From positions 80,983 to 144,982 of IMG/VR virus record IMGVR_UViG_2938655777_000006: a stretch of 64,000 bases of DNA, one strand, 5' to 3'. Positions within the stretch are counted from its first letter, which is position 1. The number at the start of each line of letters is the position of its first letter. Below are positions 17,793 to 49,372 of this stretch, one piece after another. The notes beneath the pieces were generated by a model. It worked only from the letters and a program-made list of their open reading frames with translations. It searched no databases and was not told the origin of the DNA. The DNA comes from a virus. Lineage: Duplodnaviria > Heunggongvirae > Uroviricota > Caudoviricetes. The translations under genes were made by a program, and so were the position numbers.

Positions 17793-17887
17793 ATCAATCA
17801 TGATCAACAAAAACGAGCAAGGTAGGATTCGAGAATTTTTCAGATCTGATTGCATTATAAGAACATGACAACAAGGAGACTACATCA

Positions 17888-33367: not shown

Positions 33368-33814
33368 ATGAAGAAATACGCAGATTGGTATTATGTACGA
33401 GAGGCAGAGAACGAAGGATTAGTTGCTTCTATGGATAATATAATTGAAAGAAATCGGACGGATCTAAACAAAAAGCTTAGTGCCTACTTTATAAGCAAAT
33501 TGCCCAATTATGATTCGATTTTTAATGAAAATGAAAGCGAAGATGTTTTGTATGCTATCAACGAATATATTCAAGAAAACAATATTGATAAACGTGAAAT
33601 TGATTTTCCTATTACGGAAGGCAGCGATGTTCATTTGTTGAAGATCACAGACAACCTTCAATTAAAAATCATTGTTGCTGATGAATATTATGGTAGCGGA
33701 GATTACAGCAAATACATTGCTATTGATCGCTTTATCATCAATGAAAATACTACAGAGAAAAATGTAGATTCATTAATTGAGTTTATTAAAAAATACCTTA
33801 ATAGCGTTCGATAA
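33368..33814 (+). CDS. hypothetical protein (148 aa)
   Basis: ATG 33368 8 nt after AAGGAGAA; track ORF begins at upstream in-frame ATG. Confidence 0.4.
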   Translation: MKKYADWYYVREAENEGLVASMDNIIERNRTDLNKKLSAYFISKLPNYDSIFNENESEDVLYAINEYIQENNIDKREIDFPITEGSDVHLLKITDNLQLKIIVADEYYGSGDYSKYIAIDRFIINENTTEKNVDSLIEFIKKYLNSVR

Positions 33815-33852
33815 AAGGCGTATTTGATTAAAAAACATAGGAGAATGAAAAG

Positions 33853-34209
33853 ATGGCTAAAATTAAGCTACCTAAAGATATCGTTCAAGTTCTAGATAAA
33901 TTTAAAGTTGAATTTAAACCCAAAGGTGTATCTTTTAAACTTGGGGCAACTAATTGGACTTTTCTTAGAGAAAGTTTCGAACAAGAACACAAAATTATTA
34001 TGGATCACATAGCTGGAGACAGTAAACATTGGGAAGATTATATGCTTTCACTAGTACATGGTTACGAAGAAATCACAGATGAAGAAATAGTAAAGGGATA
34101 CTATGAGAGAGCTACAGCGCTAACAGCGTTCGATCCTTGTTTGGCTTATCGTGCAGGGATGAGAGATTTTGCAAAAGTATATGGCTATAATTTTCGGTGG
34201 TTGTTGTAA
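33853..34209 (+). CDS. hypothetical protein (118 aa)
   Basis: RBS atAGGAGaatgaaaagATG. Confidence 0.4.
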   Translation: MAKIKLPKDIVQVLDKFKVEFKPKGVSFKLGATNWTFLRESFEQEHKIIMDHIAGDSKHWEDYMLSLVHGYEEITDEEIVKGYYERATALTAFDPCLAYRAGMRDFAKVYGYNFRWLL

Positions 34210-34287
34210 GGCAATAAAGGAGGAAGCTAATGCACTGGACAACATGAATTACAAGCAGACAATTATAGATTAGGGAGGGCTTATTGA

Positions 34288-35313
34288 TTGAAATCTAATA
34301 TTATAATTCCAGAAACAATTAAGGTTGGCTTTCAAAACAGAGACAGTACGTACACTAAGAAACTGGCCTATGTTATTTACTACGATCATAAAGGCGTTTT
34401 AAGAAAAGAAGCTTCATGGAATAGCTGGAGAGACAAAGACATTCCCGATTTGTCGCTATCAAATATTCCAACATCAGGATTTGTACTAAATAAAAAAGCG
34501 GGTGGGTACTCAAGTGGATGGAATCACAGACAAACATATGTCAGAGTGTATGATCCAAGAGACTTTGAATTTGAAATTAGCGTACCCAACCTGCTGTATA
34601 TCCTAGAAAATACTAACTCCATCAAAGGAAAAGGACTGGAAGGCGAATTTGTTTATGGGTGGGATGGTACTGAATTAGTTCTAATCCCAACCTCTTCTCC
34701 TGATTATAGTGAGATTATTCAATTCAATGGCATCCTTAAAGAGAAGAAACACATTAAAGGGAAAGAGCTATTGCTAGGCGCTACATATAAGACCAAAGAT
34801 AATAGGGAGCTTGTCTACTTAGGTAGATTCGATTATTACGGATGGAAAGGAGAAAAGGAAGCTAAGAAGTACTTCTTTTACAATAAAGATAAATATTCAT
34901 ACCTTGAAACGATAAAAACACTGGGAGATAAGATAATCAGCGTAGTGTCAGAAGAATGTGTTGAAAATTATGCTGAGTTGATGGACAAGCTAGAGTCTGA
35001 TTCACACTACTCACCGTATGATGAATCAAAAGATGAATTTGTTGATTGTGACTATGATGTTTTCAAAAGCAAAGTTACGAATGATAGATGGGGTACGAAG
35101 TTTTATAGTAGAGGTAGCATTATCAAAGTATCAGAAAATTATCCCGATCCAAGTTTATTTAAAGTATCTACCGAAGCCATGTCTTCATGGGGCTACAGCA
35201 GAGATGAAGTGATCTATGAAGGTTCGCTAGAAGATATCTACGAAACCTATAAACCAAAACGAAAAAATAAATATTTAACTAATGGGAAACTCTATCAAAA
35301 AGATATTATTTAA
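34288..35313 (+). CDS. hypothetical protein (341 aa, TTG start)
   Basis: ttaGGGAGGGcttattgaTTG. Confidence 0.45.
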   Translation: MKSNIIIPETIKVGFQNRDSTYTKKLAYVIYYDHKGVLRKEASWNSWRDKDIPDLSLSNIPTSGFVLNKKAGGYSSGWNHRQTYVRVYDPRDFEFEISVPNLLYILENTNSIKGKGLEGEFVYGWDGTELVLIPTSSPDYSEIIQFNGILKEKKHIKGKELLLGATYKTKDNRELVYLGRFDYYGWKGEKEAKKYFFYNKDKYSYLETIKTLGDKIISVVSEECVENYAELMDKLESDSHYSPYDESKDEFVDCDYDVFKSKVTNDRWGTKFYSRGSIIKVSENYPDPSLFKVSTEAMSSWGYSRDEVIYEGSLEDIYETYKPKRKNKYLTNGKLYQKDII

Positions 35314-35328
35314 AAGGAGAAATACATA

Positions 35329-35739
35329 ATGGTAATTAACAATGATCAAAAAATTCTGGAACTTAAAAAGCAGATTGAAGCTAAGAAGAAACAAATTAGC
35401 AAGTCAAAAAAGTTTGCGCCAGTAACAAACTGTTCAATTGAGTTGGATGGAGTAAGATATAACATTCAAGTGTTAACGAAAGAGCAAGTCGTCTCTTTAA
35501 TGGTAAAGCTTAATTCATATGCTATGTCGGCAGACGATTTGGGACTATTACATAATTACACTATTAGTGGGTTTAATGTAGCGGAATGGATTGACGATCT
35601 AAAGTCTAAACTTGATTTCATGTCTAGAAAAGAAGAAGAACAAAAACTTAAAACAATGGAATCAAAACTTGATAAGTTGCTCTCGAATGATAAGAAGGTT
35701 GAACTTGAAATAAGTGAGATTGAATCCCTGCTTAATTAG
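35329..35739 (+). CDS. coiled-coil protein (136 aa)
   Basis: RBS aaaAGGAGaaatacataATG; heptad-rich sequence. Confidence 0.4.
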   Translation: MVINNDQKILELKKQIEAKKKQISKSKKFAPVTNCSIELDGVRYNIQVLTKEQVVSLMVKLNSYAMSADDLGLLHNYTISGFNVAEWIDDLKSKLDFMSRKEEEQKLKTMESKLDKLLSNDKKVELEISEIESLLN

Positions 35740-35783
35740 TTAGTAAAAACCGATTTTACAATAATAAAAAAGGAGAAATTTAA

Positions 35784-35999
35784 ATGAGTGTTATTGATAG
35801 TATTAAAGCAAAAATCGAAGATTTACGAGAAGATATTATAGAAATTAATGAACAAATCGAAGATGATTTCAATCCTATGGACTGGTCTGGCGGAAATTTT
35901 GATGATTGTTATGATCTAGGGTATGGACATGGAAAGAAATTTGGTCGTATGGCAGCCTACAAAGAAATTCTTTCAATTCTTGAAAGTGATCGTCAATAG
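35784..35999 (+). CDS. hypothetical protein (71 aa)
   Basis: RBS aaaaAGGAGaaatttaaATG. Confidence 0.4.
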   Translation: MSVIDSIKAKIEDLREDIIEINEQIEDDFNPMDWSGGNFDDCYDLGYGHGKKFGRMAAYKEILSILESDRQ

Positions 36000-36038
36000 A
36001 AATCGTAAAAGTCAAATTTTATAAAGATGGGAGCGCTT

Positions 36039-36800
36039 ATGATGAAATTAAGTAAAGTTAAAGGCTATGAAGATCGGACTATGTTAATGGTTAAGTTCAC
36101 AGAAGAAAAATATGTTAATGATATTTATGACGGTAAACTGTTTTTTAATCCACTCAAGTACTTTGTAGATTTACATGAAGGTACGGGAATCAAAGGGCAA
36201 GGTGACAAATATGAAGGCGCAAATATCATTAATAATGTCTCTGTAAAGCTTATTAATCAGGATTGCAACATTCCTGTGCTAGAAGGGATGTTTGGGAAAA
36301 TTATTGAAAGAAATGGTATATCTGATCATATACCTGTATTTTGTTTAACAACTTTCACAGCAGATAATTTTGAAATCATCGATGAAACAAATGAATCATA
36401 TCGAGCAATTTTTAATGTAGATAAAAACACAAGAAATAAAATTGAAGAAAATTTTGGTAACAGGGCTGTTGTGATTAACCCGGTTTCATTTATAAAAGGT
36501 ATAAATCAAAGCTGCAAAGACAACGGAATTAGCTATGCATCTAAGAAAGTGAAATATGAAGACATATTCATTAACAGAAGAGAGAGAATAACTAATTATA
36601 ATAATTTAACAATTGATTCACTGTTTATTAAAGATAAATATTTTGAATATCAAAATGAATTCAGAATTGCCTTGTTTGATACCCGTATAAACAAAGGTGA
36701 ATTTTTTAAGATGGACAAAATAAAAGAAAGTGTTCTTGTAGACATAGACACGAAAGATTTTTTTGAAAATTATTTTATTGAAGTAGAAAAACACATTTAA
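36039..36800 (+). CDS. hypothetical protein (~254 aa), first gene of DpdA block
   Basis: ATG 36039/36042 5-8 nt after GGGAG; no recognisable motifs. Confidence 0.45.
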   Translation: MMKLSKVKGYEDRTMLMVKFTEEKYVNDIYDGKLFFNPLKYFVDLHEGTGIKGQGDKYEGANIINNVSVKLINQDCNIPVLEGMFGKIIERNGISDHIPVFCLTTFTADNFEIIDETNESYRAIFNVDKNTRNKIEENFGNRAVVINPVSFIKGINQSCKDNGISYASKKVKYEDIFINRRERITNYNNLTIDSLFIKDKYFEYQNEFRIALFDTRINKGEFFKMDKIKESVLVDIDTKDFFENYFIEVEKHI

Positions 36801-36837
36801 GTAAAATGCACATTTGACTGAGAGAAGAGGGATTGGA

Positions 36838-37269
36838 TTGAAACGATCAATAGCGTTAATTAGTTGTGGGAAAAACAAATCGTCTCAAAAAGCACAGGCG
36901 AAGGATTTGTATATCGGAGACTTATTTAAAAAGGCCAGAAAATACTCTGAGAAAGTGCATTCAGAATTCTATATTTTAAGTGCTCTTCATGAATTGGTGC
37001 AGCCAGAAAAATTATTAGAGCCTTATAACTACACGTTAAATGATTTAAACAAACAAGAAATTGTTTCATGGTCACATAATGTATATAAACAAATAAAAGA
37101 CATAATTAAAGAAGGAGAAGAAGTAGAAATTTATATATACGCAGGTGACAAGTATCGTAAATTTCTAGTTCCGCTCCTAGAAGCAGATGGACTAAAAGTG
37201 AATATTCCACTCAAAGGTTTGGGAATTGGACGGCAGCTATCATGGTTTAAAAACAACATCGGAGAGTGA
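36838..37269 (+). CDS. hypothetical protein (143 aa) adjacent to DpdA
   Basis: TTG 36838 6 nt after AGAGGG; conserved-looking N-term IALISCGKNKSS...DLYIGDLF; stop 5 nt before DpdA start. Confidence 0.4.
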   Translation: MKRSIALISCGKNKSSQKAQAKDLYIGDLFKKARKYSEKVHSEFYILSALHELVQPEKLLEPYNYTLNDLNKQEIVSWSHNVYKQIKDIIKEGEEVEIYIYAGDKYRKFLVPLLEADGLKVNIPLKGLGIGRQLSWFKNNIGE

Positions 37270-37273
37270 TTAA

Positions 37274-38086
37274 TTGAGGCTATATCTATCAAAATGCAAT
37301 GACAAGTTAAATACAAAAGAATTAAATACTGAATTTATTACACAAAGCGTATGCTTAAATCCGAAATATAAAGGAATCACCATAAAAAATCCTGATACAA
37401 AAATTTTAATGGATAGTGGAGCATTTCAGGATACAGATAAAGATAAGCGCATTTCTGTTGAAGAGGCATTAGAACGCCAATTAAAACTTGAAAAAAAGAT
37501 TGATATGGTTAGTGAAAGAATTGTTGCTTACGACCACATTGGAAATGTTGAAGACACAATTATGGCAAATAACTACTTAGTCTCTAGACGTGAAGAATTG
37601 AGACCAAGACAATTGGTGCTTATGATTCAGGGCGCAACAATTAAGGACTACATCTACTGCTTAATTGAAACTCTAAAAGTGGCTTCACCTGAAGATTGTA
37701 TTGGGTTAGGTGGGGTCGCAATGTCTGGAAGAGTGAATGATATAAAGTTCAAATTGCTGGATGCAATTAAAATTGGCTTACCAATCATTTGTAATTCTAA
37801 AGTTAAGGATGTTCACATATTTGGGGTGGGTACATTCAACGTATTAAAAGAAGTAGCATACATAAAAGATGTAATAGGAATGGCTGGAGTAGACACAGAG
37901 CAATTAAACATTAGTTGCGATACTTCATCATTTGAAATTATGTCCACAATGGGCAGTGTCATTGATGAGGTACAAGAGAAATGGGTTAAGGTGTACTCGA
38001 AACAGCAAAAATACATAGATTACCATCCAGCAGATTTAACAATTGAAAATATGAAGAAAGCAAAAAAGATAATTGAAAGAATTTAG
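37274..38086 (+). CDS. dpdA: DpdA-like tRNA-guanine-transglycosylase-fold protein (7-deazaguanine DNA transglycosylase candidate)
   Basis: TGT catalytic-region signatures LMDSGAFQ (cf. TGT ..TDSGGFQ), IGLGGVAMSG (cf. GGLAVGE), HIFGVGT (cf. YLMGVG); no Zn-binding CxCxxC tail, as in phage DpdA; TTG start 8 nt after GGAGAG. Confidence 0.6.
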   Translation: MRLYLSKCNDKLNTKELNTEFITQSVCLNPKYKGITIKNPDTKILMDSGAFQDTDKDKRISVEEALERQLKLEKKIDMVSERIVAYDHIGNVEDTIMANNYLVSRREELRPRQLVLMIQGATIKDYIYCLIETLKVASPEDCIGLGGVAMSGRVNDIKFKLLDAIKIGLPIICNSKVKDVHIFGVGTFNVLKEVAYIKDVIGMAGVDTEQLNISCDTSSFEIMSTMGSVIDEVQEKWVKVYSKQQKYIDYHPADLTIENMKKAKKIIERI

Positions 38087-38096
38087 GAGGAAATAG

Positions 38097-38618
38097 ATGT
38101 TTAGAATTATTCTTTATATTGCAGCAATCGTTATCGCAAATGTAGTTACAGCAAGTTTCCAGCCAATTACAGTCTGGAGATTTATTGTTCCGATGGGGAC
38201 TGTATTTATTGGCGCTACTTTTATTCTTAGAGATTTGGTGCAGCAAAAGTATGGGCGCAAAAATACGTATGTCATTATTTTCGTTGCACTGCTTTTTTCT
38301 GCGCTAGCCTCTTGGTCGTTGGGAGATACATTATGGATTGTAGCCGCAAGTGCGATTACTTTTATATTCTCAGAAACGTTTGATACAGAAGTGTTTACTC
38401 GGCTTAAGTGCTCTTTTGAGAAGAGAGTATTAATCAGTGGAACCATAGGTGGAGTTGTTGATTCTGGCTTGTTTGTAATTATTGGATTGTCGCCGTTGGG
38501 AGCTGGGTTTATTCCATGGGCAGCAGTAGGGTATGCAATCTTTGGTCAGGTAGTTGTCAAAACAGTCATGCAGTTTGTAGGCTATCTAACAGCCAGAAAG
38601 TTTATCAAGTTCAAATAA
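38097..38618 (+). CDS. yhhQ: YhhQ/VUT-family queuosine-precursor (preQ0/preQ1) transporter
   Basis: 6-TM protein; collinear with E. coli YhhQ motifs: ILRDLVQQKYG (cf. ATDLTVRIFG), TFDTEVFTRLK (cf. ILDVHVFNRLR), GGVVDSGLFV (cf. GNVSDTLAFF); RBS ttAGGAGGaaatagATG. Confidence 0.55.
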   Translation: MFRIILYIAAIVIANVVTASFQPITVWRFIVPMGTVFIGATFILRDLVQQKYGRKNTYVIIFVALLFSALASWSLGDTLWIVAASAITFIFSETFDTEVFTRLKCSFEKRVLISGTIGGVVDSGLFVIIGLSPLGAGFIPWAAVGYAIFGQVVVKTVMQFVGYLTARKFIKFK

Positions 38619-38650
38619 ATTGTACCTTTTAAACAAAACGAGGATGGGAG

Positions 38651-39028
38651 ATGTTCACTATAAATTTTGGTCAACAAGTATGGGGATCGATTGACATCAA
38701 TACACCGATTCCCTTCTCAAGCAACAACTACGAGTTTACATTTGCAATCGATGAAAAGACTTACACAATAACAATTCCAGTCGGCACATACAAAACAGTC
38801 AGAGAACAACACAGTTCAGAGCTTGTTTCTATTTTGAACACTCTAGCTAATGATGTAAATGCCCCTGTAGAGTTTAAATTGGGGGGAATGCATTACGATC
38901 AAAAATATAATGTCGTTGTAATTGAACACAATGATAAGTCTACGGGTCATGTAATTGATGGTTTTGGCGGTACAGCTAAAGACTTAATCTTTGGTGAAAC
39001 TAAATTCAATCTATCACCGAGAGATTGA
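38651..39028 (+). CDS. hypothetical protein (125 aa)
   Basis: RBS acgAGGAtGGGAGATG. Confidence 0.4.
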   Translation: MFTINFGQQVWGSIDINTPIPFSSNNYEFTFAIDEKTYTITIPVGTYKTVREQHSSELVSILNTLANDVNAPVEFKLGGMHYDQKYNVVVIEHNDKSTGHVIDGFGGTAKDLIFGETKFNLSPRD

Positions 39029-39038
39029 AAATAAACAG

Positions 39039-39067
39039 TTGACTTAAATTATATAAACAAATATAAT
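39039..39067 (+). promoter_or_regulatory. consensus sigma-A-type promoter (early-type), near-duplicate of 22649 promoter
   Basis: TTGACT (39039-44) - 17 nt - TATAAT (39062-67); ~125-nt leader to gene at 39193. Confidence 0.55.
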
Positions 39068-39192
39068 GATATTATAAATAAAAAAAAGGTGGTTATCGCA
39101 TAGATTACATTTACTACTGGTATGCAACAGAAAACTACTCTTTATTATTCATACTAAGATGATAATTTCGCACTGAAAGCGAGGACTCAATT

Positions 39193-39396
39193 ATGAGCCA
39201 AGAGACAAATAAGTTACTTGTAAATGTTGCACTGTTAAAAGAGTCATTGGAAAGATTGAATAGAAATCTGGATTTACAAACAGAAGCCAGAATTAGACTG
39301 GAGAAGGCTCAAAGAGACAAACTAGACTTTATTAATGAAAGATTGGGACATATCAACATACAGAAGTGGAAGAAAGCAAATGACCGTAAGTTTTGA
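39193..39396 (+). CDS. hypothetical protein (67 aa)
   Basis: RBS aagcGAGGactcaattATG. Confidence 0.4.
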   Translation: MSQETNKLLVNVALLKESLERLNRNLDLQTEARIRLEKAQRDKLDFINERLGHINIQKWKKANDRKF

Positions 39397-39601
39397 ATTA
39401 GCCGAACATCTGATTAACTGTTTTTTGGATGACGTTGGCACAGAAAGTGAAAGAAAGCTACACGAAGACAATTACATAAAGAAAAAACTTAAAAAACACT
39501 TAGGCGATAAAAATTTTGATAAGTACGATGCATTAAAAGAACAAGTATGGAAAGATGCATGGAGAGAATTTGATAAAGTAGCAATAAACAAAAATACATA
39601 A
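39380..39601 (+). CDS. hypothetical protein (73 aa)
   Basis: ATG 39380; track ORF 39335 starts earlier in same frame. Confidence 0.35.
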   Translation: MTVSFELAEHLINCFLDDVGTESERKLHEDNYIKKKLKKHLGDKNFDKYDALKEQVWKDAWREFDKVAINKNT

Positions 39602-39618
39602 TGATTGGATAATTAAAT

Positions 39619-39879
39619 ATGAATGATGAGCTGAAACGGTTTATTGTTGAGGGCATGTTGCCACGAGAAGTTGAAGCGTTGACTATTGCTGCTGATTCAT
39701 TGTATTTAAAGAGAGATAAGGATAGGGAGTATTTAGATGACTGGTGGCTAGTGGTTAGAGCCTTGCTAGGAGAAAGAGTAGAAGAATTTAGAAACTGTCG
39801 GATTGTAAATGAATTGTATAATTATTTAAATCATAGACAGGAAAATGAGGAGGCAAGGAAGCATGAATTATGGTATTAG
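39619..39879 (+). CDS. hypothetical protein (86 aa)
   Basis: ORF in track. Confidence 0.4.
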   Translation: MNDELKRFIVEGMLPREVEALTIAADSLYLKRDKDREYLDDWWLVVRALLGERVEEFRNCRIVNELYNYLNHRQENEEARKHELWY

Positions 39880-40324
39880 AGATATCATTGATCTGCATGT
39901 GTTTGATGAGACAGGAAAATTTGTTTCAACTATCACTACCCTGAAAAAAGGGAGCATAAGTGTAGCAAATAGAACGATCAGGGTAAAAGACGCTCTTTTG
40001 AATGGTGACATGCTTAAGTTTCTGAATAAATCAGTAACCGATGTGTCGGATTATGATAAGTTCTTTAGCACAACGCAAAATTACGAAACAATTGTATTTA
40101 ATCGTAAAGTTGTCAATTGTAAACTGATTGCTGAAGGGTTCTATAGAAAACAAGAAAACCAAGAAGATGTATTAGTACAATATGAAATACCACAATGCAG
40201 TATTGTAAGTAATTATGATTTCAATCACTCTACTGTTGGCAACGCAGATGAGTTTGATTATGTATTTGAAATAAAAGAGTTTAATGAAGAAGGCGATTTA
40301 TTCAAGCTTCATATTGAAAAGTAA
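39863..40324 (+). CDS. hypothetical protein (153 aa)
   Basis: ATG 39863 after GAGGAGGcaaGGAAGc. Confidence 0.4.
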   Translation: MNYGIRDIIDLHVFDETGKFVSTITTLKKGSISVANRTIRVKDALLNGDMLKFLNKSVTDVSDYDKFFSTTQNYETIVFNRKVVNCKLIAEGFYRKQENQEDVLVQYEIPQCSIVSNYDFNHSTVGNADEFDYVFEIKEFNEEGDLFKLHIEK

Positions 40325-40366
40325 TACATAGCATTTCAGATAAAACAGTTCTTTTACGCAGACCAA

Positions 40367-42562
40367 ATGGAGATGATACGTACGCAAGTTACTAAAAGAG
40401 ATGGTTCAGTTGTTGCGTTTAATCAACAAAAGATTGTTGATGCTATTTTCAAAGCAATGAGTAGAACAAAAAAAGGTATTGATAAGCAATTAGCAGCCAA
40501 TGTCACCAATGAAGTTGTAGCAATACTTAACAATGTAGCTAACATAGACATTGAAGCTATCCAAGATGCAGTAGTAGATGTTCTTATGCAAAGCGAGAGA
40601 AAAGATGTAGCCAAAGAGTACATAGGATATCGAGAAGTACGGAATCTGAAACGAAGAGAAAGAAGCAGCCTAGATAAAAAAGTATCTGGATTACTGGACA
40701 TGTCCAATGAGGAAGTATTAAAAGAAAACTCAAACAAAGATGGGCAGACGATTCCCACACAACGAGATCTTCTAGCAGGTATTATGGCAAAGGACTATGC
40801 TCAAGCTTATATGATGCCAAAACGAGTTGTTGAAGCTCACAATAGAGGAGATTTACATTTTCACGATCAAGATTATTCACCCTATTTTTCAATGACAAAC
40901 TGTATGTTGATTGATTTAAAGGGAATGTTGGAGAATGGATTTAAGCTTGGTAATGCTCAAATAGAAACTCCAAAATCTATTACAACAGCAGCGGCAGTTA
41001 CTGCACAAATTATTGCACAAGTAGCTAGTCATATCTACGGCGGTAACACAATTAATGAAATTGATAAGATCTTGGCTCCATATGTGAGAGCCTCATTTAT
41101 TAAACATTTTAGAGTGGGAATGAAATGGTTTGAGAGTAATCCAAACGATCATATACTTGAAAGCCAAGTGTATCCAGAAAGTTTAATCTTCAAGACCAGA
41201 TTTATAAAAGAATATAATTACGCGATTCAAATGACAGAAAAAGAGACATTGGATGCATTCCAATCACTTGAATATGAGATCAATACTTTGGTTTCCGCAA
41301 ATGGACAAACGCCTTTTTCAACCTTTGGTTTTGGGAGAGGGACAAGATGGGAAGAAAGACAGATACAAATTGCAATACTTAAAAATAGAATTAGAGGATT
41401 GGGCAAAGAAGGCAGTACTCCTATATTTCCAAAATTGATTTTTGCTCTAGAAGAAGGAGTTAATCTGAATCCCCAAGATATCAATTATGACATTAAGCAA
41501 CTAGCAATCAAATGTAGTACGTTGAGAATGTATCCTGATATCCTTTCAGTCCCAAAAGTTAAAGAAGTAACAGGTTCATTTAAGTTCCCGATGTCATGCC
41601 GCAGCTTTTTAAGTAAATACATAGAAAATAATGAAGAACTACATGATGGACGATTTAATATGGGGGTAGTGACTCTTAACTTGCCACGGATTGCAATTCG
41701 CGCAAAGAATAGTGAAGCAGAATTTTATAATCTATTGGATGATGAATTAGAAATTTGTAAAGAAGCGTTAATGTTTAGAATAAATCGCCTGAAGGGAGTC
41801 AAAGCAAAAGTTGCACCGATCCTCTATATGGAGGGAGCGGTAGGAGTCAGATTAAAGCCCGAAGATACAATTGACCAACTATTGGAAAATGACAGAGCAA
41901 GTATTTCACTTGGATACATAGGTCTACATGAAACCATATTGGCGTTATTTGAGAAACACATTTTTGATGACTCTTTTATGCATCAAAAAGGATTGAATAT
42001 TGTAAAATATCTTAGCGACAAAGCAAACAAATGGAAAAATGAAACTGGCTATGGGTTTAGTTTATATTCTACGCCAGCAGAATCGCTATGTTATCGTTTT
42101 TGTGAACTAGATAAGAACAAGTATGGTCTAATTAAAGGTGTTACTGACAAAGGATACTATACCAATTCGTTTCATTTAGATGTCAACAAAAAGGTAACGC
42201 CATTCGAAAAGATTGAGTTTGAAAAAGAATACCCTCAATATGCAAGTGGTGGTTTTATATCTTATTGTGAATTTGATTCATTAGTAAAAAATCCAGAAGC
42301 ATTAGAAGCTGTATGGGATTTTGCTTATGAGAGAGTACCGTACTTTGGAACAAATACTCCAGTAGACAAGTGTTATGAATGTGGGTATGAAGGAGAGTTT
42401 AAGGCAACAAATCAAGGCTTCAAGTGTCCAAATTGCAATAATAATGATCCCAAAACAAGTTCAGTCATAAGACGCTGCTGTGGTTATCTTTCAGAGCCTT
42501 CACAAAGACCTTTTAATAAAGGAAAGCAAAAAGAGGTTGTGTCGAGAGTGAAACATAACTAA
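40367..42562 (+). CDS. nrdD: anaerobic ribonucleoside-triphosphate reductase (class III RNR) NrdD
   Basis: N-terminal ATP-cone (IRTQVTKRDGSVVAFNQQKIVDAI), C-terminal Zn ribbon CYECGY...CPNCNN and glycyl-radical motif RRCCGYL. Confidence 0.7.
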   Translation: MEMIRTQVTKRDGSVVAFNQQKIVDAIFKAMSRTKKGIDKQLAANVTNEVVAILNNVANIDIEAIQDAVVDVLMQSERKDVAKEYIGYREVRNLKRRERSSLDKKVSGLLDMSNEEVLKENSNKDGQTIPTQRDLLAGIMAKDYAQAYMMPKRVVEAHNRGDLHFHDQDYSPYFSMTNCMLIDLKGMLENGFKLGNAQIETPKSITTAAAVTAQIIAQVASHIYGGNTINEIDKILAPYVRASFIKHFRVGMKWFESNPNDHILESQVYPESLIFKTRFIKEYNYAIQMTEKETLDAFQSLEYEINTLVSANGQTPFSTFGFGRGTRWEERQIQIAILKNRIRGLGKEGSTPIFPKLIFALEEGVNLNPQDINYDIKQLAIKCSTLRMYPDILSVPKVKEVTGSFKFPMSCRSFLSKYIENNEELHDGRFNMGVVTLNLPRIAIRAKNSEAEFYNLLDDELEICKEALMFRINRLKGVKAKVAPILYMEGAVGVRLKPEDTIDQLLENDRASISLGYIGLHETILALFEKHIFDDSFMHQKGLNIVKYLSDKANKWKNETGYGFSLYSTPAESLCYRFCELDKNKYGLIKGVTDKGYYTNSFHLDVNKKVTPFEKIEFEKEYPQYASGGFISYCEFDSLVKNPEALEAVWDFAYERVPYFGTNTPVDKCYECGYEGEFKATNQGFKCPNCNNNDPKTSSVIRRCCGYLSEPSQRPFNKGKQKEVVSRVKHN

Positions 42563-43065
42563 TGTACATAGCTGACTATAAAACATTTGATGTAATAAAC
42601 GGCATTGGTTTGAGACAGTCATTGTTTGTATCTGGATGCACTCACCATTGTAAAGGGTGCTTCAATGCTTCAGCATGGAATTCACACTATGGAATTAAAT
42701 ATACGGATGAATTAGAGAATAAGATTATCAGTGATTTGAAGATTGATTATGTACAAATAGCTGGATTATCAGTGTTAGGTGGTGAACCATTTCAAAGTAT
42801 TAATGGACTGCTACCACTTTTGAAACGAGTAAAGAATGAGTGTAAAGATAAGACAATTTGGATATGGTCGGGTTATACGTTTGAAGAAATTCTAAAAGAT
42901 AGTTCAAAGAAAGATATGTTATCTCTTTGCGATGTTTTAATTGATGGCAAATTTGAATTAAATAAAAAAGACTTAACTCTAAAATGGCGTGGTTCCAGTA
43001 ACCAAAGAGTTATCGATGTACAAAAGAGCCTAGAGCTACAGATGGCTATGCTGTTTGAGGATTGA
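42562..43065 (+). CDS. nrdG: anaerobic RNR activating enzyme NrdG (radical SAM)
   Basis: CxxxCxxC cluster SGCTHHCKGCFN; start overlaps nrdD stop (taATG). Confidence 0.65.
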   Translation: MYIADYKTFDVINGIGLRQSLFVSGCTHHCKGCFNASAWNSHYGIKYTDELENKIISDLKIDYVQIAGLSVLGGEPFQSINGLLPLLKRVKNECKDKTIWIWSGYTFEEILKDSSKKDMLSLCDVLIDGKFELNKKDLTLKWRGSSNQRVIDVQKSLELQMAMLFED

Positions 43066-43107
43066 TAATAATGGGCGGGCGGTAGGGCATAAGGAGGAGA
43101 TGTTCAT

Positions 43108-45435
43108 TTGACAAAAGTACTAAAAGACAGAAAAAGTTATACCCAACGATCAGATTTTGACCATGAAAGATTTGAACGTTTCTTCCACGAAATTGTTATG
43201 GATAGCGGCAAATCATTTGAAGAGAATGACTTGCAAGAGATGAAAGATAAAATCATCTCAGAAGTAGTGTCTAAGCAAGAAGTAAAAGCAGATTACTTGT
43301 TTGATTTGATTATTCGCGAATCAAACGATAGAATCAATCAATTCACACCACAATTTACCTACTTATCAGCTTCAACATTCAGACGTAAAAAATACAAAGA
43401 AGCTTCAAGAGAACGAGGATTCGACTACAAGGTTGGATATGGTGATTACTACACCCTTGTTAAAATGTTAACTGAAAAAGGAATATACTCAGAAGATATA
43501 TTGAACAGCTACAACAAAGATGAGATAGAATACGCTGGTGGATTTATTGACAGAGAAAGAGATCGAAAATTTAGCTACGCAGGTTTGTTCCTGTTTAACA
43601 AAAACTATTTGGCAAAAGGATACAATGAAGAAACCCTTGAGTTATTTCAAGAAAGATATCTAACATGTGCTCTTTATCTATTAAAAGACGAAGACAAAGA
43701 GAAGAGAATGGGTCTTGTTAAAGAAGCATATGATGTTTTAAGTCTTCATTTGGTGGGGCTTGCTACTCCAACGCTTGCTAATGCTGGTAGAGTAACTGGA
43801 ACTCTAAGTTCATGTCATATTATTACGATTGACGACAGTCTGCAAAGTATTATGGATGCAGTGAAAGACGCTTCAACATTTAGTCAGAATGGTGCTGGAT
43901 TGGGGATTTATCTTGGTCGTCTCAGATCTCATGGAAGTTGGATTCGTGGCTATAAAGGTCGATCTACTGGTGTAGTTGGCCCAGCTAAATTATTTAATGA
44001 AATTGCTACATACGTAAACCAACTCAATATGAGACCGGGTGGAGTAGCACTTTACCTACCATTATGGCACGCTGACATTTTTGACTTTCTAGATTTGAGA
44101 ATGAAAACTGGTTCACAGGAACGCAGAGCGCATTCCATTTTTACAGCAGTAAATGTACCCGATGAATTTATGCGTAGACTAAACGCACGAGACAATTGGA
44201 CTATATTTGATCCTTACGAAGTAAATAATAAACTCGGGATCGATATAAATAAATTGTATGACAAGAGAAAACTTCGTGACGGAGAAACACCAAACGAGAT
44301 AGATCATTCATTTACATACTACTATCGTGAGATTGAAAAAAATGACACCTTGGAATTGAAAAAAGTTGTTAAAGCAACTGATATCTATAAATCAATTTTT
44401 GAAGCTCAAAAAACTGGTGGTACACCTTACATGTATTATGTGGATACGGCTGCTCGTATGAATCCAAACAATCATGTAGGTATTCCGATTTCTTCTAATC
44501 TTTGCTCAGAGATTGTTTTAAACTGCGATTATGATGAATTTGTGAGCAAGGAGTTAAGTGAAGACGGTGTAGTAACTGAAAAGAAGAAAGGTTCTGGACT
44601 GGTAACTTGTAATCTAAGTTCCATTTCATTACCTGCCGTATTCGGTAATGATAATGTAGACCTTCAAAAAGTAATTGATATTCAATTTCGTCTATTAGAC
44701 AACGTAATTTCGTTGAATCGCACAGTTGTTGAACAAGCAACCCATACGAACAATATTTATCGTAGTGTGGGTGCTGGAGCTATGGGGCTAGCAAATCTCT
44801 TAGCAGAGAAAGGAATTCGATGGGAATCCGAAGCTGCTTCAGAATACGTAAAAGAAATTTTTGAAAAGTTAAACTATGCTCATATTCTTGCTAGTCATAA
44901 ACTAGCAGTGGAAAAAGGGTCATATAAGATGTATGAGGGTTCTGACTGGAATACAGGCGAATACTTTGAAAAGAGAAACTACAATTCCCCTGAATGGCTA
45001 GAACTAAAACAAATGGTTATGCAACAAGGAATTAGAAACGGTAATTTGAGTTGCGTTGCTCCTACTGGATCTAATAGTCTAATCAACAATGTCTTTGCTT
45101 CTCTAGATGCACCATATGAAGTAATCTTCCAAGAAGAAAAACAGGGAATGAATGTAACAGTTATTCCTGCAAACTATAGCGCTAAAACTAAATGGTACTA
45201 TAAATCAGGATTTGAGATGGATGAATTGTGGTCGCTGAAGATTGTTGCTGCGGCTCAAAAGGGAATAGATCAATCCATTTCTCATAATGTTATGGTGCAT
45301 GAATCAGTTAAAGCTAGTGAGATGTTGAAAATCCACACATTCGCTTGGGATTCTGGATGCAAATCTTTGTATTATACATATGTAGATAAAAATTCGGTAA
45401 ATAGAAAAGAAAACTGTGAGTCTTGTGCTGGATAA
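43108..45435 (+). CDS. nrdE: class Ib ribonucleotide reductase alpha subunit NrdE
   Basis: Active-site ISSNLCSEIVL, catalytic-loop regions; TTG start 7 nt after AAGGAGGAGA; C-terminal CESC pair. Confidence 0.7.
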   Translation: MTKVLKDRKSYTQRSDFDHERFERFFHEIVMDSGKSFEENDLQEMKDKIISEVVSKQEVKADYLFDLIIRESNDRINQFTPQFTYLSASTFRRKKYKEASRERGFDYKVGYGDYYTLVKMLTEKGIYSEDILNSYNKDEIEYAGGFIDRERDRKFSYAGLFLFNKNYLAKGYNEETLELFQERYLTCALYLLKDEDKEKRMGLVKEAYDVLSLHLVGLATPTLANAGRVTGTLSSCHIITIDDSLQSIMDAVKDASTFSQNGAGLGIYLGRLRSHGSWIRGYKGRSTGVVGPAKLFNEIATYVNQLNMRPGGVALYLPLWHADIFDFLDLRMKTGSQERRAHSIFTAVNVPDEFMRRLNARDNWTIFDPYEVNNKLGIDINKLYDKRKLRDGETPNEIDHSFTYYYREIEKNDTLELKKVVKATDIYKSIFEAQKTGGTPYMYYVDTAARMNPNNHVGIPISSNLCSEIVLNCDYDEFVSKELSEDGVVTEKKKGSGLVTCNLSSISLPAVFGNDNVDLQKVIDIQFRLLDNVISLNRTVVEQATHTNNIYRSVGAGAMGLANLLAEKGIRWESEAASEYVKEIFEKLNYAHILASHKLAVEKGSYKMYEGSDWNTGEYFEKRNYNSPEWLELKQMVMQQGIRNGNLSCVAPTGSNSLINNVFASLDAPYEVIFQEEKQGMNVTVIPANYSAKTKWYYKSGFEMDELWSLKIVAAAQKGIDQSISHNVMVHESVKASEMLKIHTFAWDSGCKSLYYTYVDKNSVNRKENCESCAG

Positions 45436-45499
45436 ATGATGAAATAGAAGAGAGGACTGTCTCTCTCTTCTTAATAATTTGTAGATAGGATGATGAGTA

Positions 45500-46525
45500 T
45501 TGGCTTTTAGAGTATTTAACGGAGAAGTGAATAATAAAGCAACCAAGATTTTTGGTGGTGAGGCAAGCGGTATATGTGATTGGGATGATATCAAATATCC
45601 TCATATGCTGACTCTGTATAAAGAATTATTTGGTAATTATTGGATTGAAGATGAGATTAGGCTTACTTCCGACCTTAAGCAATACCGTGACGGCCTAACA
45701 GAAAAAGAAAGATATACTTATAACGTTGTAACGGGAATGTTGACATCATTGGATTCTGTAGCTAATCGCTTTAATTTTACAATTGGGCATACCTGTACAG
45801 ATCCAAGTGTTGCAGCAGTCATCCAAATCATTGGTGCTTTTGAGGGATTACATGCTAGATCATATCAGTACTTAACTTCAACCATGCTTAACTCTGAACA
45901 AAAGAAACAGGCATTTAATGCGCCAAAAGAAATTCCGCTATTGCGAAAAAGAAACGATATCATTTTTAAAAAGATTCAAAACTTTATTGACGATCCAACC
46001 AACTTGGAAAAACTATATCATGCACTGCTTGCAAACTTAGTGCTCGAAGGTGTATTTTTCACCGGGGCATTTGTTTACTTTAATTCTCTTGCACGTTCAA
46101 ACAGAATGATTGGCTCCAATAACATGGTCAATCTCATTAAAACTGATGAGAATTTTCATTCGGTCTTTTATGGAGATGTAATGAAGATTCTGATGTTGGA
46201 AAACCCCGAATTAAATACTGAATTGAATCACAAAGAAGCTGTATCTTTTATCAAATCATGTGTAGAAAAAGAAAAAGAGTGGGCAGAATATATTTTTGAA
46301 GGAATAGATACGTTGTCTGTTCCAGAATATAAAGATTACGTTGAATATCTTGCAAATGTTATTTGTAGAAATGCTGGTATTCAAGAAGTTTATCCAGACA
46401 ATAAAGAACTGAAATCAAAATGGATTATTACCTATGGCTCAAAAGGTGGTAATACAAAAAGTGATTTCTTCCAAACGAATGTAATTTCATATGGACATGA
46501 AAGCGGCGATGGATTTGACCTATAA
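45500..46525 (+). CDS. nrdF: class Ib ribonucleotide reductase beta subunit NrdF
   Basis: Di-metal ligand motifs (EGLHARSY, ENFHSVF), ferritin-like fold; TTG start. Confidence 0.7.
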   Translation: MAFRVFNGEVNNKATKIFGGEASGICDWDDIKYPHMLTLYKELFGNYWIEDEIRLTSDLKQYRDGLTEKERYTYNVVTGMLTSLDSVANRFNFTIGHTCTDPSVAAVIQIIGAFEGLHARSYQYLTSTMLNSEQKKQAFNAPKEIPLLRKRNDIIFKKIQNFIDDPTNLEKLYHALLANLVLEGVFFTGAFVYFNSLARSNRMIGSNNMVNLIKTDENFHSVFYGDVMKILMLENPELNTELNHKEAVSFIKSCVEKEKEWAEYIFEGIDTLSVPEYKDYVEYLANVICRNAGIQEVYPDNKELKSKWIITYGSKGGNTKSDFFQTNVISYGHESGDGFDL

Positions 46526-46925
46526 CAATAAGGCTATCTATTATTATTCAATGTCTGGTAACACAAAAGCATTGGTAGCACTAGCTAATACACATGGTTA
46601 TGATATATATAATATGGCAACAATCCATCCAGATAATTTAGATTTTAAGAATTACGATATTTTGCTGATCGGTACGTCTACAGTTGGTCGAGGAGTTCCG
46701 CATAGATATTTCAAGGATATTTACCCTCTGATAAATGGTTTAACTGGCAGAAAAGTGGGATTGTTCGGCAGTGGGAATTCTATTTATGACGTTTACTGTG
46801 GAGCATTAGATTTATTAGAATCAGTTCTTCAAGATAATAACACCATCATATTCAAACTCAAATTTGAAAGTTACCCCACCAAAAAAGTGATTAAAGAGTT
46901 TAATGACTTGATTGGAGGAATTTGA
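46491..46925 (+). CDS. nrdI: NrdI-like flavodoxin
   Basis: FMN-loop IYYYSMSGNTK; real start probably ATG 46509; overlaps nrdF end. Confidence 0.5.
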   Translation: MDMKAAMDLTYNNKAIYYYSMSGNTKALVALANTHGYDIYNMATIHPDNLDFKNYDILLIGTSTVGRGVPHRYFKDIYPLINGLTGRKVGLFGSGNSIYDVYCGALDLLESVLQDNNTIIFKLKFESYPTKKVIKEFNDLIGGI

Positions 46926-47694: not shown

Positions 47695-48522
47695 ATGACA
47701 ACTAAAAATAACAAGCAAGTAAAACAACCATTTTACGAAATTAATGAGACAGTTTATATCAAACCACTTAAGGTAAAAGGTGTTGTTAAGGGATATTTGG
47801 ATGGTTTGACAGTGGTAACATTTTTTATTAAAGGCAAAAGACGTACAAACAAGTTTGAAGACTCCTTGCTACGCCATTACAAAGAAAAAACAAATAAGTT
47901 AATCAGTATGCCAAAATTATTTAGAGGCGAACTTGTCCTTAATAAAAAAGATACAGAGACAATTACTAAAATCACTGAAATTTTAAAATCTTCAGTTAAT
48001 AACCCAATAGTACCTGAATCTATTTCCGACTTCTTTAAAGTACGCGAGTTCCAAAAAGCGTTTAATTGCCCTGCTCCAGATGTGCCAACTATCCTGTCAG
48101 ATAAATTGGCAATCAATCGTGCCTCTTTTATTCTTGAGGAAGTGATTGAGTTGTTGTATGCTACTGCTGGCAACAAAAAGAGATTCGATAAGTTTTTTGC
48201 TGAATTAATCTTGAATGCAGAAGAAACATATAAAAAACAACTCACTAAGCCTTTCCCTGAAGATCGTCTAATTGGGCAAATCGATGCTCTTATTGATATC
48301 AAGTATTTTGCTGAAGGAGGACTTGTTGAGGCTTCTGTTGTTCCTGATAGAATTTTTGATTTGGTTCATCAAGCAAATATGTCAAAAATTTTTCCCGATG
48401 GGAAGCCACATTATAATGAAGTAGGCAAGGTAATTAAACCTGAAGGATGGGAAGCTCCAGAACCTAAAATCGAAGAAGAAGTGAAGCGGCAAATTAAACT
48501 TGGCTCTAAACGATTCAATTGA
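47695..48522 (+). CDS. MazG-like NTP pyrophosphohydrolase (all-alpha) with N-terminal extension
   Basis: C-terminal region ...FQKAFNCPAPDVPTILSDKLAINRASFILEEVIELLYA... resembles MazG/dimeric dUTPase-type fold; RBS ataaGGGAGccaaaatacatATG. Confidence 0.45.
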   Translation: MTTKNNKQVKQPFYEINETVYIKPLKVKGVVKGYLDGLTVVTFFIKGKRRTNKFEDSLLRHYKEKTNKLISMPKLFRGELVLNKKDTETITKITEILKSSVNNPIVPESISDFFKVREFQKAFNCPAPDVPTILSDKLAINRASFILEEVIELLYATAGNKKRFDKFFAELILNAEETYKKQLTKPFPEDRLIGQIDALIDIKYFAEGGLVEASVVPDRIFDLVHQANMSKIFPDGKPHYNEVGKVIKPEGWEAPEPKIEEEVKRQIKLGSKRFN

Positions 48523-48583
48523 TTATAATGTGCTTGGGCGGTGGTAATTCCACTGCCTTTATTTATGAAGAGGAGTAGATAAT

Positions 48584-49372
48584 ATGTCATCCGTTGATAA
48601 CCAATATTTAGCGCTCGTAAGAGATATTCTAGAGAATGGATACGAAGATACCAATAGAACAGCAGATCGTAGCAAAAAAGTGTTTGGAAAAGTATTGCGT
48701 TTTAATCTTGCTGAAGAGTTCCCTCTTCTCACACTTAAATTCACTGGCTATAAAACACTAACTAAAGAAATGCTATGGATTTATCAGCAGGGATCGAATG
48801 ATGTACAGTGGCTAAATGATAGAGGTATTAAAATTTGGGATGAATGGAAGTTGCCCGATGGTACTATAGGCGAAGCTTATGGCGCTCAAATCAAAAAGCA
48901 TAATCAAATCAATAAGTTGATTAACGAACTTAAAAATAACCCCCAATCTAGAAGAATGGTTATTGATTTGTGGGCTGTTGCCGATTTGGATAAAATGTCG
49001 TTAACTCCTTGTATGTTTAATCACATTGCTGATGTGAATGATGGGAAGCTGAATTGGCATACAACAATTAGATCTTCTGATGTAGCTCTGGGCTTACCAT
49101 ACAATATAGCTCAGACAGCCATTCTAGTGCATATGATTGCACAAGTAGCTGGGTTACAAGTGGGAGAATTGATGATAGCAATAACTAATGCTCATCTGTA
49201 TGAACAACACTATGAGCCTATAAAGGAAATCTTCAACCGTACATCATATCCTGCACCTAAGTTGTGGCTTGATCCAACAGTAACAGATTTTCATGAATTT
49301 GATGTAGACAAACACGTTAAAGTGTTTAATTACCAATCACATCCGTCAATAAAAATGCGAGTATCAGTATGA
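48584..49372 (+). CDS. thyA: thymidylate synthase ThyA-family enzyme (TS or dUMP hydroxymethylase)
   Basis: Collinear with E. coli ThyA: IWDEW, RRMVIDLWAVADLDKMSLTPC (catalytic Cys), RSSDV, GLPYNIAQ (Asn = dUMP specificity), HLY; His after the Cys is replaced by Met. Confidence 0.65.
   Translation: MSSVDNQYLALVRDILENGYEDTNRTADRSKKVFGKVLRFNLAEEFPLLTLKFTGYKTLTKEMLWIYQQGSNDVQWLNDRGIKIWDEWKLPDGTIGEAYGAQIKKHNQINKLINELKNNPQSRRMVIDLWAVADLDKMSLTPCMFNHIADVNDGKLNWHTTIRSSDVALGLPYNIAQTAILVHMIAQVAGLQVGELMIAITNAHLYEQHYEPIKEIFNRTSYPAPKLWLDPTVTDFHEFDVDKHVKVFNYQSHPSIKMRVSV

Follow-up and report, generated by a model that had tools for sequence, protein, structure and literature searches.

A predicted importer, DpdA-like transglycosylase and DUF6884 module for salvage-type 7-deazaguanine modification of DNA in an SPbeta-like Paenibacillus prophage

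The 7-deazaguanine modifications of DNA are one of the main routes by which phages get past restriction enzymes and Cas9. In the bacterial Dpd restriction-modification system, preQ0 is inserted into DNA by DpdA (PDB 7ui4), a protein of 413 aa encoded in a defence island together with dpdD-K. It retains a CXCX2CX22H zinc site and requires the DndB/ParB-like ATPase DpdB for insertion, and DpdC of the same system acts on DNA, where it converts preQ0 to the amide ADG (PMC10164549). Phage-borne DpdA enzymes, which are tied to deazaguanine genes and include short forms such as the 259-aa DpdA3 of phiST, have been divided into DpdA1, DpdA2 (Vibrio phage nt-1), DpdA3 (Cellulophaga phage phiST and Campylobacter phages) and DpdA4 (DUF6610, archaeal viruses). 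In Enterobacteria phage CAjan, a gene for a YhhQ-type transporter lies inside the dPreQ0 cluster of the Seuratvirus group (folE, queD, queE, queC, yhhQ and dpdA) and is dispensable (PMC7544227). Phages with DpdA alone may take up their precursors, as Hutinet et al. suggested (PMC6884629).

Here, we analysed a 64,000-nucleotide stretch of DNA (the window) from a large, integrated SPbeta-like prophage of Paenibacillus and find that it probably encodes a three-gene module, made up of an importer, a DpdA-like transglycosylase and a DUF6884 protein, for 7-deazaguanine in DNA from a salvaged precursor. The module is surrounded by replication and nucleotide-metabolism genes in the same orientation, among them ribonucleotide reductases, ThyA, DHFR and DNA ligase. 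The four open reading frames of the original prediction are all present on the + strand (36027/36039..36800, 36814/36838..37269, 37274..38086 and 38097..38618), the genes called by NCBI on this DNA likewise start at 36039 and 36838, and each frame has a GGAG-type ribosome-binding site. The intergenic gaps are 4-39 nt, and the description of the block as translationally coupled was therefore right about the tight packing but overstated as to coupling, since the genes do not overlap. A claimed early promoter at the end of the block corresponds to a sigma-A-type promoter-like site (TTGACT-17-TATAAT, 39039..39067, + strand) that rests on a consensus match only; with 11 of 12 positions matching, it is the best such site in 33500..40500, a region where promoter-like sites are no more numerous than in shuffled sequence. 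The tight packing of the genes ends at this site, which does not come directly after the transporter: the last gene before it is a small one of unknown function (38651..39028, + strand, 125 aa, phrog_19400), which is not conserved beside the module and has a homologue about 6 kb from the module in a close relative (L009).

The 270-aa product of 37274..38086 is very probably a 7-deazaguanine transglycosylase, and the predicted structure, the motifs and the gene context together support placing it in the TGT/DpdA fold superfamily. The AF2 model (pLDDT 95.6, pTM 0.92) is a minimal TGT-type TIM barrel, (beta/alpha)8, which in Foldseek matched TGT and DpdA with E values of 2.6e-8 to 2e-5, compared with 4e-4 or worse for other folds. 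The best structural match was a DNA-acting enzyme, and the fold matches in BFVD comprised 34 phage DpdA-like models, including phiST DpdA3 (M4SLA5) and nt-1 DpdA2 (R9TGF0), so that the fold is common to the window enzyme and the described phage subfamilies. The three signatures noticed in the sequence, LMDSGAFQ (residues 44-51), IGLGGVAMSG (143-152) and HIFGVGT (181-187), were all found, and in 39 homologues the invariant columns include D47 S48 G49, G144 G146 G147, H181 F183 G184 and D216, with D87 and the QG, GxGG and HxFG motifs likewise invariant. The active sites of TIM barrels lie at the C-terminal ends of the beta-strands, and in the model D47 (in DSGAF), D87 and D216 occupy this position on successive predicted strands, equivalent by alignment and model to the three active-site aspartates of the superfamily. 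From the motif alignment and the predicted model, we propose that D47 would be the general acid/base, F51 the gate, D87 the base-recognition residue and D216 the nucleophile. The D47-x3-F51 spacing is that of Asp95/Phe99 in Salmonella DpdA (PMC10164549), and an hhalign comparison with phiST DpdA3 was collinear and paired all three aspartates, although the match was weak (E 9e-4, 23% probability, 20% identity).

No sequence profile bore out the fold assignment. The HMM searches put forward as a check on the DpdA/TGT identity failed, and the enzyme was missed by every sequence profile that we tried: no TGT/DpdA match was obtained in Pfam (including TGT PF01702 and DUF6610), NCBIfam or PADLOC, no significant one in PHROGs, where phrog_887, which appears to be the DpdA1 group, reached only E 0.042, and nothing among the PDB sequences with either phmmer or the 39-sequence profile. 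Single-sequence hhalign comparisons with E. coli Tgt (2.9% probability) and with the TGT of Fusobacterium phage phiFN37 (4%) aligned the expected motifs without significance. The enzyme does not match phrog_20335, the PHROG of phiST DpdA3, and showed no significant similarity to CGPG_00065 of the DpdA3 type or to its relatives. A tblastn search with phiST DpdA3 found 11 phage records, none of them related to the window, and tblastn and megablast of 50,697 phage genomes found no relative of the window enzyme. It is thus a sequence member of none of the phage subfamilies, despite being close to DpdA3 in size, and it belongs to a small family that accounts for 324 clusters (50% identity) among 1.84 billion and for 3 loci when 185,579 species genomes are considered.

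The zinc subdomain is missing, as had been noticed: there is no CxCxxC...H motif, and the 54 residues past D216 contain no cysteine and one histidine. To read this loss as the DpdA pattern does not hold in general, because bacterial DpdA keeps its site; in size, the window enzyme is comparable only to short forms such as phiST DpdA3. Compared with that enzyme, to which it is 13% identical with no sequence profile linking the two, the window enzyme also lacks the conserved large insertions, and it lies in a phage lytic string instead of a defence island, with no adjacent gene for a DpdB ATPase. Our search for a DpdB-like gene adjoining the module found none. A DndB-family gene about 45 kb upstream was considered for this role and rejected; it is a homologue of the conserved SPbeta YopQ, also carried by SPbeta-like phages in which tblastn found no relative of the transglycosylase.

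The 173-aa protein encoded by 38097..38618 (+ strand) exceeded both curated cut-offs as a Vut_1/YhhQ-type queuosine-precursor (preQ0/preQ1) permease, in Pfam Vut_1 PF02592 (7e-12, 46.4 bits, cut-off 27.2) and in NCBIfam TIGR00697, queuosine precursor transporter (3e-14, 53.3 bits, cut-off 50.95), which bears out the YhhQ assignment that had been made from the sequence alone. It also matched phrog_4899 (1e-31) and has about six hydrophobic segments on the Kyte-Doolittle scale, as a polytopic membrane protein would. Pairwise similarity to E. coli YhhQ, a longer protein of 221 aa, is weak (21% identity, E 0.025), and among phages it is closest to the transporters found in Streptococcus phage Dp-1/MS1 and in the CAjan/Seurat group. 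The pairing of a YhhQ-type transporter with DpdA is thus shared with CAjan, whose transporter is a detectable relative. CAjan differs in having genes for the complete preQ0 pathway, and its named genes include none for DUF6884; here, no gene near the module other than that of the transporter would supply precursor. We annotated nearly every ORF of 70 aa or more with Pfam and ran phmmer searches with the E. coli proteins, and found no queC, queD, queE or folE in the window, as originally stated, and likewise no queF; the same held for 6-9 kb on each side (contig positions ~72-151 kb). The window contained no preQ1 riboswitch or other Rfam family. The suggestion that the phage imports a host-made precursor agrees with our reading as regards import, but "host-made" is imprecise, since what a membrane importer takes up comes from outside the cell.

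In relatives, the genes around the transglycosylase-transporter pair link it to 7-deazaguanine metabolism. Among 20 distinct related loci of the transglycosylase family, with homologues down to 38% identity, a Vut_1/YhhQ gene adjoins the transglycosylase in 11 and a DUF6884 gene does so in 8. One relative, L013, whose enzyme is 67% identical, has the order queD-queE-queC-DUF6884-x-transglycosylase and no transporter, and synthesis and import therefore seem to replace each other; this swap of a transporter at most loci for queD-queE-queC at L013 is a natural experiment that supports the salvage idea. At other loci, a QueF-like gene adjoins the transglycosylase (L023) or a Q_salvage gene lies 5 kb away (L004). 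DNA-modification genes are found as well, with an N6_N4 methylase and Mom beside the module genes of L013 and MT-A70 in L016, and two distant relatives of the transglycosylase are fused to ParB_N and HTH_ParB.

The gene at 36838..37269 (+ strand) had been put down as unknown. It encodes a standalone DUF6884 protein, DUF6884 being the domain of DpdC, and thus a known kind of partner. The protein has 143 aa (151 from an alternative TTG at 36814) and matches Pfam PF21818 at 4.6e-46 over profile positions 1-134 of 135, and PADLOC PDC-M57A at 2e-39. The CxxxK and ILSA motifs, of which CxxxK and LSA are shared with DpdC, are intact, and C10, K14 and I46-L47-S48-A49 do not vary among 11 phage copies; in the window copy, the G of Pfam's LSAxxG motif is replaced by E. 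Linkage to a DpdA-like enzyme is likewise common to both proteins. However, the C-terminal domain of DpdC is absent: the PADLOC DpdC models matched at 7e-9 to 3e-5 over residues 21-83 only (~60 residues), corresponding to positions 47-111 of ~312, and the core domain alone, ~145 aa against ~310 DpdC positions, makes up half the length. The authors of Pfam ascribe DNA binding and base flipping to DUF6884. By analogy with DpdC, the protein is a candidate enzyme for tailoring the inserted base within DNA, although its chemistry here is a guess, since DUF6884 also occurs in Caulobacter phage W2 and Bradyrhizobium phage BDU-MI-1, in which no transglycosylase is seen nearby. DUF6884 is missing from five lineages that do have the enzyme and transporter, which argues for a tailoring step and not for an obligate cofactor or helper.

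The first gene of the block, 36039..36800 (+ strand), which encodes 253 aa (257 from an ATG at 36027), had been suggested as a new accessory factor of the module. It turned out not to be a conserved partner; it adjoins the module only in the window phage, and homologues are absent from all the other related loci. The protein matches phrog_26561, of unknown function (2e-33), has no match in Pfam, gave a poor AF2 model (pLDDT 55) and has three database proteins among 5.8 billion, one of which is identical to the query, leaving two non-identical relatives. The relative whose context we examined lies between tail genes and holin/amidase lysis genes of an unrelated siphophage. Because of this absence elsewhere and the homologue in an unrelated region, we rejected the near-orphan as a component of the module, and it is most likely an unrelated accessory gene outside it.

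Taken together, we infer a course in which the permease would take up a free 7-deazaguanine base during lytic growth, most likely preQ0 and possibly preQ1 or a relative, an import that would be needed because no queC/D/E/F or folE lies near the module. The transglycosylase would then swap guanines in double-stranded phage DNA for the imported base by the double displacement of TGT, with D216 as the nucleophile forming a covalent deoxyribosyl-enzyme intermediate, D47 acting as general acid/base, F51 as a gate and D87 reading the Watson-Crick edge. That DNA is the target seems likely, given that DUF6884 is the DpdC domain, that relatives are fused to ParB domains and have DNA-modification neighbours, and that a search of the window turned up no tRNA gene. 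The DUF6884 protein may next act on the inserted base in the DNA, where, as with DpdC, it could hydrate the nitrile of dPreQ0 to give the amide dADG, a final product that we suggest only tentatively. The modified DNA would be resistant to restriction enzymes and other DNA-targeting defences.

A different chemistry with the same enzyme and transporter is rather unlikely, and it is the strongest of the alternatives. The base could be preQ1, queuine or another derivative, and the DUF6884 product could be something other than dADG, or the protein could be a DNA-binding helper that replaces DpdB. Members of Vut_1 differ in the queuosine-related base that they transport, and Dp-1, whose DNA is dPreQ1-modified, has one of the nearest phage transporters. 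The presence of only the DpdC core domain, and the occurrence of DUF6884 in phages with no transglycosylase seen nearby, point in the same direction. Furthermore, the substrate differs among DpdA subfamilies (PMC10516641). Against this, L013 pairs the DUF6884 and transglycosylase genes with queD-queE-queC and no queF, and preQ0 is therefore the expected precursor there, and the five lineages without DUF6884 are at odds with an obligate helper.

It is very doubtful that the module is instead an auxiliary metabolic unit acting on tRNA, which would increase queuosine-type modification at position 34 of host tRNAs and tune phage translation while phage DNA stays unmodified. The enzyme lacks not only the zinc subdomain but any of the C-terminal elements of tRNA-acting enzymes, its best structural match acts on DNA, and its conserved DpdC-like partner has a DNA-acting domain; the ParB fusions, the DNA methylases and Mom beside relatives and the lack of tRNA genes in the window are further points against this role. 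Equally improbable is a prophage-borne system for defence or self/non-self marking, either a Dpd-like restriction-modification system marking lysogen DNA or a Cap10-like protein deazaguanylation. Near the module we found neither restriction genes of the dpdD-K type nor a CD-NTase or a QueC-like Cap9, and its genes share one orientation within a lytic replication and nucleotide-metabolism string. The Cap10-like role was rejected as a main reading because CD-NTase and Cap9 are absent and because the QueC of L013 is canonical (8e-72 to E. coli QueC) and accompanied by QueD and QueE.

Returning to DNA modification by salvage, the same trio is encoded in one string in Fusobacterium phage phiFN37 (OR492271.1), next to a ParB-like gene and in a different order (TGT-DUF6884-Vut_1). 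Its DUF6884 and Vut_1 proteins match their families at 6e-41 and 3e-47, and its transglycosylase, 267 aa long and without a Pfam match, belongs to phrog_887 (3.7e-46) and can hardly be aligned with the window family (hhalign E 0.01). In the literature that we searched, phiFN37 is named only in a review on an unrelated topic. A bolder reading, which we put forward tentatively, is that the 270-aa protein represents a fifth DpdA lineage, unconnected by detectable sequence similarity to those known, that together with a YhhQ importer and a pared-down DpdC-like enzyme may form a self-contained module writing dADG or an undescribed 7-deazaguanine derivative into the DNA of temperate SPbeta-like phages, from scavenged base only and with no DpdB-type ATPase; the trio would have been assembled independently in phiFN37, and DUF6884 would be a general phage solution for preQ0 tailoring.

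In conclusion, the module is most likely a new version of a known anti-restriction strategy, in which the phage swaps bases in its own DNA for a base obtained from outside. Surveys of phages with 7-deazaguanine modification use DpdA sequence profiles, and since this lineage is invisible to such profiles, current surveys would miss it together with its 324 cluster representatives. If the proposed function is true, the DUF6884 protein would be the first tailoring enzyme of the DpdC type to be found in a phage, phages would have two routes to dADG in their DNA, this one and that of the Campylobacter phages, and the transglycosylase would be a compact DNA base-exchange enzyme of 270 aa with neither a zinc site nor DpdB, and hence a possible tool. 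It would also mean that DNA hypermodification can be sustained purely by base import, so that the protection of the phage depends on what the microbial community supplies.

The original prediction of a DpdA-like transglycosylase at 37274..38086 (plus strand, 270 aa) is borne out by predicted structure, whereas sequence methods fail to place the protein. Profile searches yielded no family-level assignment: Pfam, PHROGs, NCBIfam and PADLOC gave no above-threshold family match (the best PHROG was phrog_887, "queuine tRNA-ribosyltransferase," with an E value of 0.042), and PDB sequences gave no match, a search with a 39-sequence profile included. An AlphaFold2 model built with 39 homologues in the alignment reached a pLDDT of 95.6, and Foldseek searches with it separated TGT/DpdA structures from other folds. 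In a viral structure library, 34 matches had an E value of 0.001 or better, and these included models annotated as queuine tRNA-ribosyltransferase as well as the phiST and nt-1 proteins. The predicted structure clearly places the protein among the TGT/DpdA enzymes. The family formed by its homologues is small, with 73 clusters at 90% identity among 5.8 billion proteins (0/73 with a Pfam domain), 324 representatives among 1.84 billion clusters at 50% identity and just 3 loci in 185,579 species genomes.

Within this family, D47-S48-G49, D87, G120, G144/G146/G147, H181/F183/G184 and D216 are invariant, and Q119 is nearly so. In the predicted model the conserved residues lie at the C-terminal ends of successive strands. 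Their order is the one known from active sites of TGT and DpdA, and D47-x3-F51 has the spacing of Asp95/Phe99 in Salmonella DpdA (PMC10164549). The zinc motif is absent from the protein, as had been predicted, and the chain stops 54 residues past D216. However, bacterial DpdA keeps its zinc site (PMC10164549), so the loss of zinc is not a general DpdA trait. DpdA3 of phiST, at 259 aa, is similarly compact. Judged by its sequence, the protein lies outside all described DpdA subfamilies.

The ORF at 38097..38618 (plus strand) was confirmed as a YhhQ-type transporter with about six hydrophobic segments, scoring above the curated cutoffs of both Pfam Vut_1 and the TIGR00697 "queuosine precursor transporter" equivalog. 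Among phages, the transporters nearest to it are encoded by Streptococcus phages Dp-1 and MS1, by the CAjan/Seurat group (where they bear the annotation preQ0 transporter) and by a set of Rhizobium phages. The predicted lack of precursor synthesis genes also held, since Pfam annotations and phmmer searches with the E. coli proteins found no QueC, QueD, QueE, QueF or FolE at ~72 to 151 kb of the contig, that is, in the window and 6 to 9 kb on each side. No Rfam family, and therefore no preQ1 riboswitch, was detected in the window, nor were any tRNA genes.

Upstream of the transglycosylase, the ORF at 36814/36838..37269 (plus strand; NCBI start, 36838) is not the unknown partner that had been proposed but a full-length DUF6884 domain (4.6e-46), which is the Pfam domain of DpdC. 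According to the Pfam curators, its DNA-binding fold resembles YaaA, carries the motifs CxxxK and LSAxxG and is predicted to flip a base into the active site; the C, the K and LSA are kept in the window copy. The PADLOC DpdC models matched residues 21 to 83 only, and the protein is half their length.

The remaining ORF of the string, 36027/36039..36800 (plus strand; NCBI start, 36039; 253 aa), had been put forward as a possible accessory factor, a role we rejected because no homologue was present in any other module-carrying locus examined. It has two nonidentical relatives among 5.8 billion proteins, one of them encoded by a siphophage, where its gene occupies a moron position flanked by tail genes and lysis genes. 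The motifs KGQGD, FC(L/M)T and Q.E(F/Y)R are conserved, while the AlphaFold2 model was poor and gave no fold assignment. We take it to be an accessory gene that has no part in the module.

All four predicted ORFs are present, separated by 4 to 39 nt and each preceded by a GGAG-type ribosome-binding site; the NCBI gene calls are for identical DNA. As the ORFs do not overlap, close packing describes them better than the strict translational coupling that had been suggested. The promoter thought to end the block does exist as a candidate, the top-scoring promoter-like match of the region (TTGACT-17-TATAAT, 39039..39067, plus strand), but one more small gene (38651..39028) lies between the transporter and this site.

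H6F38_14565, encoded on a 406.5-kb contig of Paenibacillus sp. EKM208P, has the same sequence as the 270-aa transglycosylase. All window genes are on the plus strand, the G+C content is ~0.33, and the set of genes is characteristic of a temperate SPbeta-like phage: YorH, DNA ligase, Gad1, a macro-domain protein, YopX, a sigma factor, an actin-like protein, ThyA, DHFR and two ribonucleotide reductases. To the left (L036, the adjoining contig piece, 248..2564; contig ~72.2 to 74.5 kb) are an MrpR-family master repressor and a DndB-family protein homologous to SPbeta YopQ. A large serine recombinase lies ~2 to 4 kb past the right end (L037, the piece on that side, 16193..17917; ~147.3 to 149.0 kb of JAAMNT010000006.1, where the window ends at 145.0 kb), followed by a 90-aa AAA_lid_6 fragment and then the host hflX and a Met gamma-lyase family gene. 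These host genes show that the element is integrated, and the source is an SPbeta-like prophage in Paenibacillus. At the nucleotide level, 35000..40000 matched no deposited phage.

Several neighbors outside the module are worth recording. Ahead of the modification module, the early region of the prophage holds an anti-defense gene cluster consisting of Gad1 (Gabija anti-defense 1; PF25705, 1.5e-120; 7027..7926) and, ~1.3 kb away, a Gad2-family protein (PF26128; 5046..5693). Directly 3' of the module is a large nucleotide supply block (40367..46925 and 47695..49860) with the anaerobic ribonucleotide reductase NrdD and its activase, class Ib-type large and small subunits with an NrdI-like flavodoxin, a PRA-PH/MazG-like pyrophosphohydrolase, thymidylate synthase and DHFR. 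At 59125..61559, the gene for an actin-like protein of the ALP/ParM type (ALP_N, 1.8e-18) is succeeded by a short ORF and then by the gene for an AAA+ ATPase that carries AAA_lid_6; the alpha subunit of a phage DNA polymerase III is encoded just outside the window.

The main functional evidence comes from gene neighborhoods at 20 distinct loci encoding members of the transglycosylase family. A Vut_1/YhhQ gene adjoins the transglycosylase in 11 of them, with homologues as low as 38% identity, and DUF6884 does so in 8/20. At L015, a YhhQ more like that of E. coli precedes the enzyme. Five lineages pair enzyme and transporter without DUF6884, which speaks for a role of DUF6884 in tailoring and against one as a cofactor. 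On a 152-kb viral contig (L013, IMGVR_UViG_3300025000_000061, 6138..11676), the enzyme is 67% identical to that of the window, and the gene order is N6_N4 DNA methylase, QueD, QueE, QueC, DUF6884, a 73-aa ORF, transglycosylase and a Mom-family protein (8.5e-44). The transporter is absent there, so that synthesis and import substitute for each other. This locus is a compact DNA hypermodification island in which three different DNA modification chemistries adjoin. At L016, an MT-A70 methylase lies two genes (about 280 nt) 3' of the enzyme. Fusion to ParB_N plus HTH_ParB occurs twice among distant members (L023 and the proteins P0094, P0108 and P0104), where fusion to DUF3102 is also seen; at L023 (9854..12592) the enzyme carries the ParB fusion, and a QueF-like gene lies upstream of it. 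Such a ParB fusion brings to mind the bacterial DpdA-DpdB partnership. Several proteins of 1000 to 1270 aa carry the transglycosylase domain and no other recognizable Pfam domain.

Much of the background to this module is already described, namely, DpdA enzymes, phage-encoded YhhQ, DpdC and the proposal that DpdA-only phages rely on precursor uptake (Hutinet et al., PMC6884629); in CAjan, phage-encoded YhhQ is dispensable beside a full pathway (PMC7544227). A parallel in an isolated phage is Fusobacterium phage phiFN37 (OR492271.1; L033, 3712..6021), with consecutive genes for ParB-like, TGT, DUF6884 and Vut_1 proteins. Its 267-aa TGT is a phrog_887 member that can hardly be aligned with the window family, and the three-part design therefore recurs on two distinct small-transglycosylase lineages. 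The annotations of the phiFN37 genes are automatic in style, an example being the category label "moron; auxiliary metabolic gene," and the only mention of the phage in the literature searched is in a single review of a different subject. The sequence-orphan lineage of the window enzyme is apparently undescribed: tblastn against 50,697 phage genomes gave no match, so that no phage isolate among them carries the family, and the literature searched does not mention a "DpdA5."

The analysis shows the fold, conserved residues, family memberships and gene linkage; the activities, target and product of the module we infer. The permease would bring in preQ0 or a related base, the transglycosylase would swap it for guanine in phage DNA via a covalent Asp216 intermediate, and DUF6884 would alter the inserted base within DNA, most simply by nitrile hydration to dADG. 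A variant of this model, and not a competitor to it, is that the base is preQ1 or another derivative and the DUF6884 product something other than dADG, which we consider possible though the less probable chemistry. A role in defense or marking is improbable. A PADLOC match (PDC-M57A), a similarity to Cap10 and nuclease-helicase neighbors in two distant branches speak for it, but the lytic-gene setting does not fit and restriction genes are lacking near the module. In those branches (L004, a metagenomic contig, 4841..8798; L040, a Thermoplasmata MAG, 8001..12739), the DpdA-like gene adjoins a convergent pair of PD-(D/E)XK nuclease and UvrD-family helicase genes, which could be a modification-dependent defense or repair arrangement; at L004, Q_salvage (PF10343) is encoded 5 kb off as well. 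A tRNA-directed role is equally doubtful, as the enzyme misses the tRNA-binding parts, its partner is DNA acting, relatives have ParB fusions and DNA modification genes are neighbors. The coupling of this DpdA-like lineage to a standalone DpdC-like protein in phages, and a module with an importer as its sole supply gene, are likewise apparently undescribed. Under the model of precursor import, base exchange and tailoring, the modified phage DNA would be resistant to restriction.
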